A DNA stretch of 19,723 nt from a bacterium. Lineage in GTDB: Bacteria > Sysuimicrobiota > Sysuimicrobiia > Sysuimicrobiales > Humicultoraceae. Every line of letters starts with the position of its first letter. The stretch's first letter is position 1. The DNA is taken from contig JBGQGY010000066.1 of assembly GCA_041497675.1 (NCBI GenBank), forward strand, positions 1-19,723. The letters are read 5' to 3'. Position numbers: made by a program. Below, piece by piece: positions 1 to 9,000 of the stretch.

Positions 1-3000
1 CATCACGCCCGCCAGGGCGCCGATGTGGTGCGCCCAGATACCCGCGCAGTTGACGACCACGTCGGTGCGAATCGTGCCCCGATTCGTCACGACCGCCGCC
101 ACCTGCCCGTCGCGCACGGTGATGCCCGTGACTTCGGTCTCTGTGTGGATCTCGGCGCCGCGGGTCCTGGCGCCCTTGGCCAGCGCAAAGGTCAGCCCGC
201 TGGGATCGACGCTGCCGTCGGTGGGGAGATATGCCGCGCCGAGCAGCCCGCGCTCGCTCATGACCGGGAAGAGATCCACCGCCTGTTTTGGCGTCAGGAT
301 CTCCATCGGGAGTCCAAAGGTCTTGGCCGTCGCGGCATGACGACGCAATTCGAGCATCCGCTCGGGGGTGGAGCCCAGGCGCAGACTCCCGGTCTCTCGC
401 CAGTCCGGATCGTGCTCCGTTTCGGCCAGCAAGGTGCGGTAGAGTTCCACGCTGTACATGATCATGCGGGTGAGACTGACCGACCCCCGAAGCTGTCCCA
501 CGAGGCCCGCCGCATGGAACGTCGCGCCGCCGGTCAGACCGCCCTTCTCGACGAGGACCACATCGCGCCAGCCCATCTTCGTGAGGTGATAGGCGATGCT
601 GCATCCGTAGACGCCGCCCCCGATGATGACGGCCTGCGCGTCCGACTTCACGAATGATCCTCCTGGCGTGCTCTCGTGCTACCGATCCAGAGGTGCGCGG
701 TCGGTCACGAACCGGAATCGATCTCCCCGATAGAGATCTTTACCGTATTCGATGGGCCGGCCCCGTGCGTCGAGCGACAGCCGTTCCTCCAGCATCAGCG
801 CTGCGCCGGGCGCGACGCCCAGCAGTCTGGCTTCAAACTCCGTGGCGATTGTCGGCTCGAGACTCTGCCGCGCGCGGTTCACCTTCACGCCGTACTCGGT
901 CTCCATGATCTCGTAGACGGAGCGCCGGGTCGTGTCGAACCGCTCAAATTTGGGGAAACGCCGCACCGGCATCCAAAACGTCTCGAGCATCACAGGCTCG
1001 CGATTCACTAGGCGCACGCGGCGGACGAGGTAGAGGGCCGAGGACACGGGCACGCGGAGTTGTCTGGCCACGGCCGCGCCGGCCGGTTGCTTTTCCAGCG
1101 TCACGACCTTCGCGCCGGGGCGGTAGCCGTACCTCGTCATCGTCCGGCTGAACGGGACGAGTCGCCCAGCCTGCCGCTCGATCTTGGGCCGCGCGACGAA
1201 CGTGCCCGAGCCCTGCCGCCGATCCAGATAGCCTTCGGTCTCGAGCTTGCTCAGGGCCGCCCGGAGGGTCATGCGGTTCACGCCGAGGGTCTCACTCAAC
1301 AGACGCTCGGCCGGCAGCCGTGCACCGGGACGCAGACCGCCCGATTCGATCTCGCTCAAGAGACTTTCCGCGATTTGCAGGTAGAGCGGCACACCTTCCG
1401 TAAAGCGGCTCGCCAGCCGCGAAGCGGCACCGGCGTTGGGCGTGGCGCGGGCGTTGCGCACGTGGTCTACCAATGACATAATGGTCTATACCATTAGACG
1501 CCGACGCCGTCGTGCATGTCAAGAGAAGCCGACGCTGCGTGCCGTCGCACGCGCGCCATGGTAGATCGGCTCACCTTCGATCCGGTCCATGTGGATCCGG
1601 ACCTGATCCTGCGGCTGCAGAAGTACCGGCAGCTCGACACTGTGCCGCAGGTCGTTAAGGATGTGGCGCGCCGAATGGCCGCATCGGCCGAAGGTCTCGT
1701 TGAGCCGCAGGGATGGGTGTGGCGCGGACCGGTCAATCGGGTCGATGCGACCGGGCACGTCCAGATCGGGGACGCGGTGCGCTTCGAGAGCCCCACCCTG
1801 GTGCGCGTACTCGAGGGTGCGACCGAAGTCGCCGTCGTGGTGCTCACGATCGGCCCACGGCTGGAGCGGCGGGCGCACGAGCTGATCGGCGAGGAACAGC
1901 TGGTGGAGGGGTTGTTGTTGGACACGGCTGGTTGGGTCGCCATCGATGCGCTGCTCAAAGACACGCGCCGGCGGCTGGCCGCGGACGCCAAACCGCAGGG
2001 TCGCCGGCTCACGGGGCGCATGGCTCCCGGGTTTGCGGGATGGGGGCTCGAGCAGCAGCGCGAGCTGTTCTCGGCCTTCGACGGCGCCGCGCTCTCGGTG
2101 CACCTGACTGACTCCTGTGTGATGATTCCTCGCAAATCCGTCTCAGGGATCTATGGTCTTGTCCCGGTGACCTATGCCGGGTGACACCGTCACGGTGCAG
2201 TTTGCGCCGGGCGAGCGCCGGGTCGCGGTGCCCACAGGCACGACGCTGCTGCGCGCCGCCCAACAGTCGGGCCAGGAGATCGTAGCGACGTGCGGTGCAC
2301 GCGGCCGTTGCCGCAGCTGCCGCGTACAAATCGTCGCGGGGCCGACCCCACCGGCGACGCTGGCCGACCGCGTCCATCTGGGCGATGACGAGGTCAGAGA
2401 ACGCTACCGTCTCGCCTGCCAGACCGAAGCCTGGGACGATCTCTCGGTCGTCGTTGCGCCGATCTTCGAAGAGACATCGTTCCAGATCCTCGCCGACACG
2501 AGCGCGCTGCGCTCGGCCGCGGGGTTCACGCTCGATTCCGGCGTCCGCAAGGAGTTCGTCACCCCGACCCCGCCGTCCAGCGAAGAGCACCCGGACTCGG
2601 ATCTCGAGGCGCTCCTCCGCACTCTCGACGGCGCGATCACCGACGTGTCCGTGGACGCCCTGCGGCGGCTGCCGGCGCTGCTGCGATCGGCGCCGGGGGT
2701 GACGGTGGCGGTGTTCGACGGCACGCTGCTCGGGATCGAATCCGGCGACACTCGCCGTGACGCGTACGGCGTGGGGTTCGACGTTGGTACGACGACGGTG
2801 GTCGGGTACCTAATCGATCTGTCGAGCGGCACGGTAGCCGCGACCGCCTCCGGTCTCAATCCGCAGGCGGCGTTTGGCGGTGACCTGATGTCGCGCATTG
2901 CGTTCGCGCAGGAAGGGCCGGCCAACGTCCGCCAGCTGCACACCCGAATCATCCAGTCGATGAACAGCCTGATCGACGAAGCGTGCGAGCGCGCGGGCGT

Positions 3001-6000: not shown

Positions 6001-9000
6001 ACTCTACTGGGAGAGCGCCGCGCGGATCATTACCGATGTGGTCTCGGGGGCCAACATCGAAACCGTGCACCCGGCCAAAGGCATCCTGCTGGACAACTAT
6101 AGCCCGATGGAGATGCTGTTTGACTGCGAGGTGGCGCACGCGGCCGCCGGGATGACACGGCGGGATGCGAACGAGATCGTCAAGGCGCTGCTGGCGAAAT
6201 ATGAGCCGCATTTGAAGAATCCACCGGAGGGCCAGCGGTTCCAGGACTGTTTCAATATCGATACCCTTGAACCGACGCCACAACACTACGAGGTCTACAC
6301 GAACGCCAAAGCGGAGCTGCGCCAACTCGGGCTCCCGCTGCGGGGAGGGTAACCGGTTGGACGAGGCAGAGATTCTAGACGGGTTACGACAAGCCGTTCT
6401 GGATTACGACCACGAGGCCGGGACGCGCCTGGTCCGCCAGGGGCTGGACCAGGGGATTCCCCCGCTCCGTCTCATCGAGGAGGGGCTGTCGCGCGGCATC
6501 GCCGTCATCGGCGCGAAGTTTCAGGCGATGGAGATCTTCCTGCCCGAATTGATGATGGCGGCCAAGGTCTTCCTCGAAGCCATGAAGATCCTCGAACCCG
6601 TGATCCTGGCCTCCGGTGAGGGCAAGCACAAGCGCGGCGTAGCCGTGATCGGCACGGTGAAGGGTGACGTCCATTCGATCGGCAAGGATCTCTTTGGCAC
6701 CCTGCTGAAAGTCGCGGGCTTCGAGGTGCACAACCTGGGCGTCAACGTGCACCCGGGCAAGTTCATCGAAAAGGTCGAGGAAACCGGCGCGCAGATCGTC
6801 GGCCTGTCGGCGCTGATGACCACGACGATGCCATCGATGCGCGAGGTCATCGAGTTCTTCGAGGCCCGGGGGCTGCGGGAGAAACACACGATCATGATCG
6901 GCGGCGGCCCGGTGACCGAATCCTATTGCCGGAAGATCACGGCCGACGCCTATGGAGAGACGGCGCAGGACGGGGTGGATCTGGCGATCAAGTTCGTGGA
7001 GCAGATGCGGGCGGCAGGGTTAGGACGGCATTGACGCGTGCATAGTATGATTGAGGCACCCAACCATCCCGCTGACGACGAGAGGAGAAACGATGTCTGT
7101 CGCAGAGAACACCAAGCTTGATGAGGACTTCATGGCCGCCTGGAACGCGCACGACGCGGACCGCGCGATCGCGCTGCTGGCCGATGACGTAGTCTGGCAG
7201 GATGTCACCATCCCGGAGGCCATGCGTGGCAAGACCGCGGTCCGACAGTACATTCAAGGCTGGTTCAAGGCATTTCCGGACATGAAAGCCGTCGTGAAGA
7301 ACCGCGTCGTGACCGAAGAGCAGGTTGCAGCCGAGCTCGAATTCACGGGGACGAACACCGGCCCCTTGCAGATGGCGCCCGGCATGCCGGCGATTCCCGC
7401 GACCGGAAAGAAAGTCACGGGTAAGGGAACGTACTTCGTGCGCATTCGGAACGGCAAAGCAGCTACCGTCCACACATATCCCGACGCCGCCGGAATGATG
7501 ATGCAGCTTGGACTGGTCCCGCGGCCCGGCGCATAGATTGCGGACGCGCGAGTGGCCGAGTATCGCATCACGTACTGGAGAGATATCCCGTCACAGGTCG
7601 AGGCGTTCGCCGGTGCTGAGCGGGTGCGGCGCCTGCTGAGCAGCCGGTTCCAGGAGTTGATCGACGCCGCGGCGATGCGGCAAGGTCTGATTGGCACCGA
7701 TGCCTACCTGGAGGCGTGGCGGATGAGCCCTGTCCTCTCGATGCCCGGCACACCGAGCGAGGTCGCCGAGGCGCTTGCGGCAGGGCTCGAAGAGCAGTTC
7801 GCGGAAATACGGGACGGTGCCCTGAGCGGGCTCTGACAGCCAGGTGCACACTGTGGAGGGGTGGCCACGGTGGAGGTACACACCCGGTCCTCGGGTACGA
7901 TGCCCGAGATCTACGACCACCATCTCGGTCCCGTCCTCTTCGGGCCGTACGCCGCTGACCTGACGCGCCGTGTGACCATCCTTCCAGACGGTCCGGTCTT
8001 GGAGACCGCCTGCGGGACCGGCATCCTCACGCAGCGACTGCGCGCTCACCTCCCCGCGCGCACGCCCCTCGTCGCCAGCGACCTGAGCGACTCGATGCTC
8101 GAGTACGCTCGCGCAAAGCACGGCGAGATCGGTCACGTCGAGTGGGAGCAGGCGGACGCCGGCGCCCTGCCGTTTCCCACAGCCTCGTTTGCGGCCGTGG
8201 CCTGTCAGTTCGGTTTGATGTTCGTCCCAGACAAGAAGGCCGCGATTCATGAATGCCGTCGGGTTCTCGTTGACGGTGGATTGGTCGCCCTCAGTGTCTG
8301 GGACAGTTTCGCGCACAACCCTTTTGCCCGCGTGGCGGACGAAACCATCGCCGGTTTCTTCCCGACGGATCCTCCGCGCTTTTACGAGGAAGGCCCCTTT
8401 GGGTTCCATAATCCCAAGGTTCTGCGCGATCTACTTGACGCCAGCGGCTTTGGTCATGTGTGGATCGAGCGCGTCACCCTCGAGGCCCTCAGCCCCTCGG
8501 CGGAATCGTTTGCGGTAGGGCTCGTCCATTGCAATCCTGCAATCAAAGCACTAGAGGACCGTGGGGGCTCGCCCAACCCAATCGTCGCGGCTGTCGCTGA
8601 GGCGCTCGCGCGCCTGGGCGGTGAGCGTCCGTTTCGGTCGACGATGCAGGCTATCGTCGCGACGGGTCGCGCCGGCGCCTAGAAATCCACCTCATCGAAC
8701 CACTCGCCGGCCAGCAGGTGCCGCTCGATCGCCCGGCGCACGAACGGAATTGTGCCGCTGGGGAGTGCGTCGACCGCACACCACCGGACGTCATCGCATT
8801 CACCGCGAGGGTACGCTTCGCCGGTCCACCGTCTCGTTCTCAAGAAGAAGTCCACGCCCTCACCACTCGCTGATCTGAAGTGCGCCACGCCGATCACATC
8901 CAGATCCCCGAAATCGATCTCCACCCCAATTTCCTCTCGACACTCGCGCGCGGCCGTCTGTGTGACCGACTCACCACCTTCGAGCCGGCCGCCGGCGAGA

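Follow-up and report, generated by a model that had tools for sequence, protein, structure and literature searches.

A putative split methionine synthase operon with a pyrrolysine-free MtmB homolog in a Sysuimicrobiota genome

The genome studied here (G000, 98.6% complete, 272 contigs) contains an operon in which a corrinoid protein is encoded together with a homolog of the methanogen methyltransferase MtmB and a stand-alone homocysteine S-methyltransferase (HMT). The operon lies in a 19,723-nucleotide stretch of DNA (the window), and its five genes (1558-7034) were each re-located, with domain matches, at the positions and on the + strand given in an earlier note. They are separated, in order, by -11, 13, 2 and 4 nt. 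The data support a corrinoid methyl-transfer system whose only linked methyl acceptor enzyme is the MetH-type HMT, and it is rather probable that this is a three-step cobalamin-dependent system, i.e. a split methionine synthase that has a dedicated, substrate-specific enzyme to supply the methyl group. The features of the window are:

1-651, - strand: dimethylglycine-dehydrogenase (DMGDH)-like flavoprotein, N-terminal 217 aa, cut by the contig end (PF01266 DAO, 176 bits)
679-1479, - strand: GntR/UTRA (HutC-type) regulator, divergent from the operon (PF00392, PF07702)
1463-1472 and 1482-1493: two TGGTCTA..CCA motifs, possible GntR operator (read from the sequence)
1558-2184, + strand: g02316, stand-alone MetH reactivation (AdoMet-binding) domain protein (PF02965, 1J6R profile, fold)
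2174-4024, + strand: RACo/RamA-type ATP-dependent reductive activase of corrinoid proteins (Fer2, RACo_linker, Raco_middle, RACo_C_ter)
4038-4970, + strand: stand-alone MetH-type HMT, proposed MT2 (PF02574, 236.6 bits)
4973-6352, + strand: MtmB-family methyltransferase without pyrrolysine, proposed MT1 for transfer from a methylated amine to the corrinoid (PF05369, 287.9 bits)
6357-7034, + strand: corrinoid (cobalamin-binding) protein with DVHSIG (PF02607, PF02310)
7051-7536, + strand: SnoaL-like protein (PF12680, PF07366)
7552-7836, + strand: PF13769 ("Virulence_fact") small protein, conserved operon member (57.8 bits)
7861-8682, + strand: class I SAM-dependent methyltransferase; the unit may end with this gene (PF13649, PF08241)
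8679-13996, - strand: unit of the following three entries (Pfam)
8679-9125, - strand: NUDIX protein (Pfam)
9104-9994, - strand: choline-kinase-like kinase 1 (PDB 3DXQ, 1.6e-37; LicA 4R77, 4.4e-20)
9984-13996, - strand: PotD/PhnS-like ABC importer (407 bits with the PhnT2 model, cut-off 457; 68 bits with PhnS)
13990-14949, + strand: choline-kinase-like kinase 2 (PF01633, PF01636)
15762-17285, + strand: aldehyde dehydrogenase, betaine-aldehyde-dehydrogenase-like (PF00171, 579 bits)

Components of the operon

The MtmB homolog had been described as full-length and TAG-free, with Ile in the place of pyrrolysine. Two lines of evidence agree with this: PF05369 covers residues 5-454 of 459 with no in-frame stops, and in the alignment to Methanosarcina barkeri MtmB (PDB ID: 1L2Q, E 6.6e-55) the pyrrolysine (X202) corresponds to Ile199. 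In the phylogeny it belongs to a monophyletic clade of 14 rows (SH-aLRT 100), whose stem is long (0.9 substitutions per site) and whose identity to other MtmB homologs is at most 49%.

The assignment of g02316 to the MetH activation domain, previously just below the Pfam cut (24.9 bits to PF02965, cut-off 25), is now firm. A profile of 25 homologs matches PDB 1J6R (TM0269) with an E-value of 5.2e-14 over positions 26-206 of 210, and the best 19 Foldseek matches of its AF2 model (pLDDT 95.7) are all MetH activation domains, with a TMq of 0.82 for 1J6R. The RACo-type activase scores 429 bits with the AcsV model NF040756, below the cut-off of 800. The corrinoid protein, whose gene starts at a TTG (6357) with GGAGG 8-15 nt upstream, carries B12-binding_2 and B12-binding domains, with DVHSIG at residues 104-109, and stays below the cut-offs of both TIGR02370 (197.4 bits, cut-off 215.3) and the MtgC model (198.6 bits, cut-off 310).

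By sequence, the HMT is MetH-like and not BHMT- or MmuM-like, the PDB matches being 7e-50 for MetH (8G3H), 1e-12 for BHMT and 7e-12 for the MmuM-type 5DML. Of the zinc cysteines first proposed (216, 284 and 285), the last two stand, while the alignment to Thermus MetH 8G3H places the first ligand at Cys218 (GCNCG), Cys216 aligning to a Met. C218, C284 and C285 are invariant in 11/11 aligned sequences, the YitJ-type one included. The HMT subfamily of the window associates with corrinoid proteins: among 23 metagenome loci whose HMT is 52-82% identical, the cluster includes a corrinoid gene in 15, and an activation-domain-like gene lies directly downstream in 12. The same architecture is also found with an MttB-type MT1, in L114 (MTTB, PF02965-like, corrinoid, HMT) and L147.

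Downstream of the corrinoid gene, the PF13769 gene is kept at that side in L012, L013, L015, L016, L017 and L087, and adjoins HMT genes in L134 and L140. The SnoaL-like gene has a tblastn match in a single one (L016) of the 14 close loci described below. The SAM-dependent methyltransferase matches the model of the corrinoid-protein-associated methyltransferase CpaM weakly (37 bits, cut-off 180); no tblastn match with at least 50% coverage was found for it in 73 genome loci, and 80 metagenome loci gave one partial match (34% identity, L163).

Synteny, genome inventory and the folate module

The close set consists of 14 loci with an MtmB identity of 81-98%. The HMT gene is inside the locus in 11 of them and directly upstream of the MtmB gene in 9, with a toxin-antitoxin pair between the two in 2 of these 9. 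The genomes of the remaining three hold HMT orthologs (69-72% identical), and the position of one of these is consistent with its belonging to the same contig, a short way upstream of the fetched locus. Among distant MtmB loci, an HMT gene was found in 0 of 59, and the visible acceptor enzyme is a pterin-binding one in 3 of the 19 annotated (L028, L070, L078).

The earlier note had the MtmB homolog take the place of the folate module; as a matter of design, this is not borne out by the related operons. Indeed, five of the seven related loci with visible upstream DNA (L012, L013, L014, L015, L023) carry in the operon, immediately 5' of the activation-domain gene, a gene for a methyl-THF:corrinoid methyltransferase (NF005719, 310.6 bits, cut-off 259), so the folate-free operon is a variant of one lineage. 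The operons of L014 and L015 also each contain an MTHFR plus DUF5981 gene, that of L023 a DUF5981 (MTHFR C-terminal) fragment, and that of L015 a formate-THF ligase gene. In such operons, most of the methyl groups may end up on THF, with the HMT possibly engaged in ordinary methionine synthesis of the MetH type, from methyl-THF. The folate-free form is that of four genomes of two genera (G000, G001, G002 and G011), in which the pterin protein of L012 has no match while the positive controls G007 and G009 do; the methyltransferase is missing genome-wide only in G000 and three close genomes.

Genome-wide domain counts agree with the earlier finding of no other B12-binding_2, MtmB, MttB or fused MetH gene. 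B12-binding (PF02310) has two matches in G000, the operon corrinoid protein and the small subunit of methylmalonyl-CoA mutase, B12-binding_2 and MtmB have one each, and neither an MTTB match nor a MetH-sized reading frame was found in the genome. The single Pterin_bind match is DHPS (TIGR01496, 288 bits, cut-off 162.6). This supports that G000 lacks both a methyl-THF:corrinoid methyltransferase and a fused MetH, and homocysteine is therefore the only acceptor linked to the system. Cobalamin availability is implied by the B12-dependent mutase, and since an AdoHcy hydrolase is present, homocysteine can be regenerated. The cell does not necessarily owe its methionine to the operon, and the operon is not the sole possible route, because G000 also has other candidate methionine synthases, a split MetE beside metG (contig C78) and a second HMT domain in a YitJ-type HMT-MTHFR of 617 aa (contig C36).

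Methyl transfer, substrate and alternative readings

In the proposed mechanism, the MtmB homolog (MT1) would demethylate a methylated amine, most likely a quaternary one, and load the methyl group onto Co(I) of the corrinoid protein, itself a separate polypeptide. The HMT (MT2), presumably in direct contact with that protein, would pass the methyl group from methyl-Co(III) to zinc-bound homocysteine, yielding methionine. Cofactor oxidised to Co(II) would be restored by the RACo activase (2Fe-2S and ASKHA ATPase) and the AdoMet-binding activation domain. The whole would resemble in its action a B12-dependent betaine-homocysteine methyltransferase made of three proteins, and the tertiary amine left after demethylation would probably be oxidised by the adjoining DMGDH-like flavoprotein.

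The clues to the substrate conflict, as the DMGDH-like neighbour points to glycine betaine and the choline-kinase-like neighbours to choline or phosphocholine. Full-length orthologs of the former in relatives contain DAO, FAO_M, GCV_T and GCV_T_C domains, and the one in L022 matches human DMGDH (5L46, E 6.4e-171) and DMGO (1PJ5, 2.6e-153). Orthologs of kinase 2 adjoin the operon in L012, L014, L015 and L017, and in L014 transporter and kinase genes lie 3' of the corrinoid gene on the same strand. The aldehyde dehydrogenase, with a 79% identical ortholog in L017, reaches 536 bits with the BADH model TIGR01804, below its cut-off of 668.6. The regulator has a 76% identical ortholog at the same position in L024, and the motifs at 1463-1493 may resemble the HutC-type GTnTAnAC operator. 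The usual importer type for betaine or choline is OpuAC, while that of the window is PotD/PhnS-like. The donor of choline/betaine type suggested earlier is a reasonable one given these neighbours and MtqB (PMC13044021). Glycine betaine is, by a rough estimate, slightly the likeliest substrate, at less than even odds; choline or phosphocholine comes somewhat lower, and other methylated amines are about as likely as the latter.

It is unlikely, though worth considering, that the system chiefly serves catabolic amine demethylation with tetrahydrofolate as its normal sink, as in MtgBCD and acetogens, the HMT being a housekeeping MetH-type branch and the operon of the window a partly disabled remnant or one with an unlinked acceptor. 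The folate genes in the five related operons and the pterin-binding partners of L028, L070 and L078 fit this reading, as does a distant MtaA/CmuA-like gene of the URO-D family elsewhere in G000, which could be another methyl-corrinoid acceptor enzyme. That gene is interrupted by contig ends, with one piece on C160 and one on C268; its scores (62 and 30 bits, cut-off 235) are far too low for the family, and it is unlinked to any corrinoid gene. The genes of the window are moreover all intact and closely spaced, the folate-free form recurs in two genera, and G001 and G011 (coordinate-matched loci L016 and L024) retain RACo, HMT, MtmB and corrinoid orthologs at 79-92% identity, so that maintenance fits better than decay.

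The split methionine synthase reading also has to be weighed against an HMT that is self-sufficient like MmuM or BHMT, using S-methylmethionine, AdoMet or betaine directly and merely co-located with a corrinoid demethylase. PF02574 does include corrinoid-independent enzymes, and the HMT scores 209 bits with PRK07534, a model named betaine-homocysteine S-methyltransferase, and 264 bits with a YitJ-type model. We regard this as distinctly improbable given the far closer MetH matches and the corrinoid genes at 15 of the 23 nearest HMT loci; the PRK07534-type "Bhmt" of Sinorhizobium meliloti has itself been reinterpreted as MtgE, one module of a split MetH (PMC12478193). Least probable, with only a slight chance, is a non-amine donor such as a sulfonium or methylated phosphonate, or an acceptor thiol other than homocysteine. 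The long stem and low identity of the MtmB clade and the PhnS/PhnT-like importer would suit such a donor, as would L043, where two MtmB paralogs are joined to Aminotran_5, a HAD hydrolase and a similar importer. Against it, the only characterised family members act on methylamines or quaternary amines (PMC13044021), the neighbouring DMGDH-like and choline-kinase-like genes suggest N-methyl compounds, and the match of the HMT to the homocysteine domain is full-length and includes the three zinc ligands.

Comparison with known systems

The operon combines two ideas, the split MetH of the MtgBCDE type and the non-Pyl MtmB of the MtqB type. A split MetH combined with a demethylase is a published principle, described for MttB-type enzymes as MtgBCDE (PMC12478193): in Ruegeria (2025), the corrinoid protein MtgC is used both by a betaine methyltransferase of the MttB type and by MtgE, the homocysteine module. 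As in the window, MtgBCDE of Ruegeria pomeroyi and the three-part split MetH of Phaeobacter inhibens (PMC5764234) have separate homocysteine, corrinoid and substrate-specific MT1 modules with one corrinoid protein, and a Fer2 and DUF4445 (RamA/RACo-type) activase, non-methanogenic bacterial hosts and a tie to downstream demethylation of the DMG type. The pterin module (MtgD-like) and MTHFR (MetF2-like) described there are shared with relatives of the window. The MT1 differs (MttB family, PF06253, versus MtmB family, PF05369), as does the accessory protein (the repair protein DUF1638 versus a PF02965-type AdoMet-binding domain), and the genes of the window form one operon in a genome without the pterin module, so methyl-THF is neither donor nor sink there.

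MtqB (2026), a non-Pyl MtmB of Methanococcoides methylutens Q3c, demethylates choline and tetramethylammonium in vitro (PMC13044021). Set beside the window by description, MtqB/MtqC is likewise an MT1 of the MtmB family without pyrrolysine, paired with its own corrinoid protein, but passes the methyl group to coenzyme M via MtbA/MtqA for methanogenesis, whereas the linked MT2 of the window is the HMT. Fused MetH shares the homocysteine domain with a Cys3 zinc site, the B12 cap and Rossmann domain with DxHxxG, and the AdoMet-binding activation domain fold; in the window these parts are separate proteins, an ATP-dependent RACo activase is added, and the methyl donor enzyme is the MtmB homolog in a genome without the folate domain. 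In Eubacterium limosum, according to PMC12155760, choline is phosphorylated prior to demethylation, and the kinase gene (MthK) adjoins a corrinoid-dependent quaternary amine demethylase (MthBCA). By analogy, such phosphorylation could explain the choline-kinase-like genes of the window, although MthB is of the MttB family, the acceptor is THF, and MthK is related to serine kinases rather than to the APH/choline-kinase fold. Finally, BHMT followed by DMGDH has the same net reaction as that proposed here (quaternary amine + homocysteine to tertiary amine + methionine), with a DMGDH-like gene adjoining the operon; BHMT is however a single zinc enzyme without cobalamin, to which the HMT of the window is distantly similar.

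Composition of the operon and its modules

The window is a complete contig of 19,723 bp from a MAG (G000) which is 98.6% complete and has a GC content of about 65%. Eight closely packed genes are found on the + strand at 1558-8682. The first five (1558-7034) form the core operon, and the gene set described for this region in the earlier note was confirmed with small corrections only.

Genes of the + strand at 1558-8682, in order
g02316, +, 208 aa: MetH-activation-domain protein, borderline PF02965 match
RACo-type activase, +, 616 aa: Fer2, linker, middle and ASKHA domains, all four above the Pfam cut-off
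HMT, +, 310 aa: stand-alone MetH-type homocysteine S-methyltransferase, PF02574 (236.6 bits)
MtmB homolog, +, 459 aa: PF05369 (287.9 bits) over 5-454 of 459 aa, frame without a stop
Corrinoid protein, +, 225 aa, start at 6357: B12-binding_2 (PF02607) and B12-binding (PF02310), DVHSIG
Genes six to eight, +, after the corrinoid gene: SnoaL-like protein, PF13769 protein, class I SAM methyltransferase

Consecutive core genes are spaced at -11, 13, 2 and 4 nt, and the corrinoid gene starts with a TTG preceded by GGAGG, 4 nt after the MtmB stop. Upstream of the operon, the opposite strand carries a GntR/UTRA regulator and a DAO-family flavoprotein, of which the first 217 residues are present and the rest is cut by the contig end. 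Downstream are a NUDIX gene, two choline-kinase-like kinases, a PotD/PhnS-like ABC importer, an ORF resembling class-I glutamine amidotransferases (GATase), an aldehyde dehydrogenase gene and an EamA transporter. Two TGGTCTA..CCA motifs (1463-1472 and 1482-1493) are located at and just before the divergent GntR start, about 65 nt upstream of g02316, and one of them, GTCTATAC, appears to match the HutC-type operator consensus. Scans for promoters and terminators stayed at chance level (1 promoter-like site against 1.3 expected, and 5 terminator-like sites against 4.2 expected).

The identification of g02316 as a MetH activation domain, which was the weakest point of the earlier note, is now firm on profile, fold and Foldseek evidence. 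A profile of 25 g02316 homologs matches 1J6R, the stand-alone MetH activation domain of T. maritima, over nearly its full length (E 5.2e-14), and the best 19 Foldseek matches of the AF2 model (pLDDT 95.7) are all MetH activation domains (TMq 0.82 for 1J6R). About one fifth of the 118 homologs have a precomputed PF02965 match, and the R-x-A-P-G-[FY] motif, which has a role in AdoMet binding, is conserved. The operon encodes the three-cysteine homocysteine domain of MetH, its B12 domain with cap and DxHxxG motif, and its AdoMet-binding reactivation domain; the modules are four separate genes instead of a single polypeptide, and no methyl-THF module was found in G000. The activase has the N-terminal 2Fe-2S ferredoxin, linker, middle and C-terminal ASKHA domains of the RACo/RamA family.

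The solved MtmB structure 1L2Q matches the MtmB homolog with an E value of 6.6e-55 over residues 9-454; the gene has an adjacent cognate corrinoid gene and no in-frame TAG. X202 of the M. barkeri structure (Pyl202) aligns to Ile199, which bears out the replacement of pyrrolysine by Ile that had been reported. Because of Ile199 and the stop-free frame, the protein is placed in the non-Pyl subgroup, and the name monomethylamine methyltransferase is unsuitable for it. Internal stops were absent from all 97 homolog rows (73 loci); pyrrolysine codons considered in the MtmB rows of L046 and L080, two of these loci, were rejected as ordinary C-terminal stop codons.

Among solved structures, the HMT matches MetH (8G3H, E 7e-50) far better than BHMT (1e-12, over 6-219 only) or the MmuM-type 5DML (7e-12), and these E values do not indicate a close kinship to solved BHMT. 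The alignment with 8G3H gives Cys218, within GCNCG, as the first zinc cysteine, which corrects the C216 proposed previously. C218, C284 and C285 align to the ligand motifs of MetH, where their counterparts are the zinc ligands, and they are invariant in 11 of 11 sequences, including the YitJ-type HMT of the same genome. On PRK07534, a model named for the S. meliloti-type 'Bhmt', the HMT scores 209 bits, below the cut-off of 338.

Related loci and the folate module

A genome scan of species representatives gave 73 MtmB loci, 14 of them (L011-L024) at 81-98% identity and 59 at 39-49%. A tree of 95 rows unites the 14 close ones (13 loci and the window, the contig-cut L023 row being below the coverage filter) in one clade with an SH-aLRT of 100 and a long stem of 0.9. 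MtmB orthologs are found in 11 of 33 other genomes of Humicultoraceae (ten at 84-98% identity, one of which is partial, and one at 31%), and in none of the 27 genomes from other families of the same order. The genes of the relatives were called with a GC3-based caller checked on the window, which may miss or truncate genes, and ORFs shorter than 80-100 aa were removed ahead of Pfam annotation.

The Sysuimicrobiota-type loci have the order activation domain, RACo, HMT, MtmB, corrinoid. Of the 14 close loci, six (L012, L013, L014, L015, L017 and L024) carry all five genes consecutively, and three further ones (L011, L016 and L023) are cut by contig ends. HMT and MtmB are separated in L016 (1455-2076) and L023 (7303-7957) by a toxin-antitoxin pair, made up of a toxin of the PemK/MazF type and a small ORF upstream of it. 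The five Methylomirabilota loci follow the order DMGDH-like (dimethylglycine dehydrogenase-like), MtmB, corrinoid, activation domain, RACo, where RACo is absent in L020 and split in L019; L020 and L021 have an HMT gene upstream of the DMGDH-like one. The other three loci, L018, L019 and L022, come from genomes with HMT orthologs of 69-72% identity, the copy in the L018 genome fitting the expected place on the same contig, and two of these genomes have MetH-sized frames. The DMGDH-like gene of L018 (3706-6113) and the RACo gene of L019 (6055-7779) are each called as two ORFs, possibly through a frameshift or an assembly error. Between L018-L022 (Methylomirabilota) and L012-L017 (Sysuimicrobiota), sequence identity is 81-83% for MtmB, 76-79% for the corrinoid protein, 70-72% for HMT and 68-69% for RACo. 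Identities this high for different phyla suggest that the gene set may have moved between Sysuimicrobiota and Methylomirabilota in a recent transfer. None of the 59 distant MtmB loci contains an HMT gene; a pterin-binding acceptor enzyme is present in 3 of the 19 that were annotated with Pfam (L028, with DUF1638; L070, with RACo; and L078).

According to the earlier note, the MtmB homolog stands in the place of the folate module. As a rule this does not hold, as L012, L013, L014, L015 and L023 carry a gene for a methyl-THF:corrinoid methyltransferase (pterin gene) immediately ahead of the activation-domain gene. These are 5 of the 7 related loci where this DNA is visible; the pterin gene is absent from L017, L024 and the window. 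The corresponding proteins score 80-88 bits on PF00809 (65.9 for the L014 ORF call, which is probably 5'-truncated), and that of L012 reaches 310.6 bits on NF005719, for a cut-off of 259. The pterin gene is accompanied by an MTHFR plus DUF5981 gene in L014 and L015 (a fragment in L023), and in L015 also by a formate-THF ligase. In these five loci the operon therefore comprises every MetH module plus the MtmB homolog, and the form without the folate module is a variant that two genera have kept. With the L012 pterin protein as query, no match was obtained in G000, G001 and G002 (window genus) or in G011, while the positive controls G007 and G009 gave one. The sole Pterin_bind (PF00809) match of G000 was considered as the missing module and rejected, being DHPS. 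At 98.6% completeness, a gap in the MAG could still account for the missing pterin gene.

The homocysteine methyltransferase and other methionine routes

G000 has two B12-binding domains, in the operon corrinoid protein and in the small subunit of methylmalonyl-CoA mutase, and it contains no MttB (MTTB search), no second MtmB and no MetH-sized frame, the latter being found in one of the 61 genomes examined. AdoHcy hydrolase is present. A YitJ-type HMT-MTHFR fusion is encoded on contig C36, and two adjoining MetE-like genes lie directly upstream of metG (methionyl-tRNA synthetase) on contig C78 (L003:329-3890). The two genes, one of 328 aa with Meth_synt_1 and _2 matches and one of 396 aa with a 160-bit Meth_synt_2 match, represent a split MetE of the archaeal type. 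Given the fusion and the MetE-like pair, the core operon is not the sole possible methionine route in G000. A distant MtaA/CmuA-like gene of the URO-D family, with MtaA/CmuA as best NCBIfam matches, is apparently broken over two contig ends (C160:6182-6673 and C268:1496-2092; 62 and 30 bits, cut-off 235) and has no corrinoid gene near it.

A metagenome scan with the window HMT gave 80 loci, 23 of which are at 52-82% identity. Among these 23, a corrinoid gene is part of the cluster in 15 and an activation-domain-like gene follows directly 3' in 12; in most of them corrinoid, HMT and activation-domain genes make up a unit of three that has no MT1 (methyl donor enzyme) nearby. In the more distant loci, the order HMT, pterin, corrinoid is found seven times. 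This co-occurrence indicates that the HMT subfamily is regularly partnered with a separate corrinoid protein, and this is the strongest support so far for a methyl transfer from the corrinoid protein to homocysteine; a contact between HMT and corrinoid protein is inferred. The three-gene unit (L090, L092, L094-L096, L098, L100-L104 and L106; HMT 52-70% identical) also has no pterin gene nearby, and a YitJ-type HMT-MTHFR gene is located a few genes downstream in L092, L094, L095 and L106. An MttB-family MT1 lies beside corrinoid and HMT genes in L114 (4058-7882, also with a PF02965-like gene) and L147 (4506-7876, without one), which are the metagenome MttB-type counterpart of the window operon.

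The PF13769 family ('Virulence_fact') is also represented directly upstream of HMT genes in two unrelated metagenome loci (L134:2168-2422 and L140:6420-7013, the latter with a 524-aa ORF without Pfam family ahead of both genes), and could have an accessory role in HMT modules. Among 14 control genomes a match was present in B. subtilis only, a protein atlas search returned PF13769 clusters only, and a literature search gave nothing relevant. The single-sequence AF2 model of the window protein (pLDDT 55.7) is too poor for use.

Substrate, mechanism and known systems

Non-Pyl members of the MttB and MtmB families act on quaternary amines, as established for the MttB family and for MtqB of Methanococcoides, and by analogy the MtmB clade of the window may use them as well. 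The clues to the substrate point in different directions. Glycine betaine is favored by the DAO-family neighbor, a full-length dimethylglycine dehydrogenase homolog (5L46, 6.4e-171; 1PJ5, 2.6e-153). Nine of the 14 close loci carry this gene, and in the Methylomirabilota arrangement it immediately precedes MtmB. A further clue to betaine is the aldehyde dehydrogenase, which is betaine-aldehyde-dehydrogenase-like, though below the cut-off. Choline or phosphocholine is favored by choline-kinase-like genes, which lie next to the operon in 4 of the 14 close loci, occur twice in the window and adjoin corrinoid-MtmB pairs in 7 of the 59 distant loci (mostly from Spirochaetota), by an importer and a kinase after the corrinoid gene on the same strand in L014, and by choline being a substrate of MtqB (PMC13044021). 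The PotD/PhnS-like importer points to neither compound.

The kinase-flanked distant pairs (L035, L055, L056, L058, L060, L064 and L078, from Spirochaetota and Planctomycetota) sometimes have two kinases, and their arrangement suggests a possible kinase-plus-demethylase logic like that of MthK/MthB. In L043 (1223-12041), an Aminotran_5 gene, a HAD hydrolase, two MtmB paralogs, a corrinoid protein, a GntR regulator and an importer 49-57% identical to that of the window are found together. This looks like aminoethylphosphonate-type catabolism joined to demethylases, and hints at methylated aminoethylphosphonates as substrates in some MtmB clades.

The interpretation offered in the earlier note is kept in part: without the rule that MtmB replaces folate, the passage of a methyl group from a methylated amine to the corrinoid protein and on to homocysteine, with repair of the corrinoid protein by RACo and the AdoMet-binding domain, is the most likely mechanism, and one we hold with moderate confidence. 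More tentatively, the operon of the window genus and the neighboring genus could be a self-contained cobalamin-dependent BHMT analogue, in which a quaternary amine, either glycine betaine or choline/phosphocholine, would lose its first methyl to the non-Pyl MtmB, the corrinoid protein would pass this methyl straight to homocysteine, and the DMGDH-like enzyme would take the next one. If true, a non-Pyl MtmB clade would for the first time be seen to serve methionine synthesis instead of coenzyme M or folate. Non-Pyl MtmB homologs are widespread, only one of them (MtqB, 2026) having a known function, and the window clade offers a clear, testable context. The folate-free form would be a natural experiment on direct methyl passage from amine to homocysteine via a shared corrinoid protein, and such passage would amount to a substitute for BHMT that depends on B12, and might explain why these lineages need B12. 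The operon is worth a bench test, as all its parts are small soluble proteins with clear assays.

The published descriptions, as far as they were available, include none of an MtmB-type MT1 linked to a homocysteine methyltransferase, and a paper on Sysuimicrobiota (PMC11604079) does not contain the terms monomethylamine, corrinoid or methionine synthase. Several known systems are nevertheless comparable. Price et al. reported that the MetH of Phaeobacter consists of three parts and goes together with a Fer2/DUF4445 activase and DUF1638 (PMC5764234). In Ruegeria, according to Mausz et al., methionine synthesis requires the corrinoid MtgC and the pterin protein MtgD, and so does the demethylation of glycine betaine by the MttB-type MtgB; MtgE is the homocysteine module (PMC12478193). 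The MT1 of MtgBCDE belongs to the MttB superfamily (PF06253), whereas that of the window belongs to PF05369 and G000 has no MTTB match; the bidirectional pterin module MtgD is absent from G000 but has a counterpart in L012, L013, L014, L015 and L023; the stand-alone HMT, which scores below the PRK07534 cut-off, may be a counterpart of MtgE; and for the RamA-like activase of MtgBCDE with its DUF1638 partner, the window shows a RACo-type activase and, by Pfam, no DUF1638. Kashyap et al. demonstrated the demethylation of tetramethylammonium and choline by the non-Pyl MtmB MtqB (PMC13044021), and Jiang et al. reported that in E. limosum choline is phosphorylated prior to its demethylation by an enzyme of the MttB type (PMC12155760). 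The proposed function would extend a finding of 2025, that one corrinoid protein can serve methionine synthesis and quaternary-amine demethylation, from an MttB-type system in marine Proteobacteria to an MtmB-type one in uncultured Sysuimicrobiota and Methylomirabilota. The window operon joins the split-MetH ideas of Price et al. and Mausz et al. to the non-Pyl MtmB idea of Kashyap et al.
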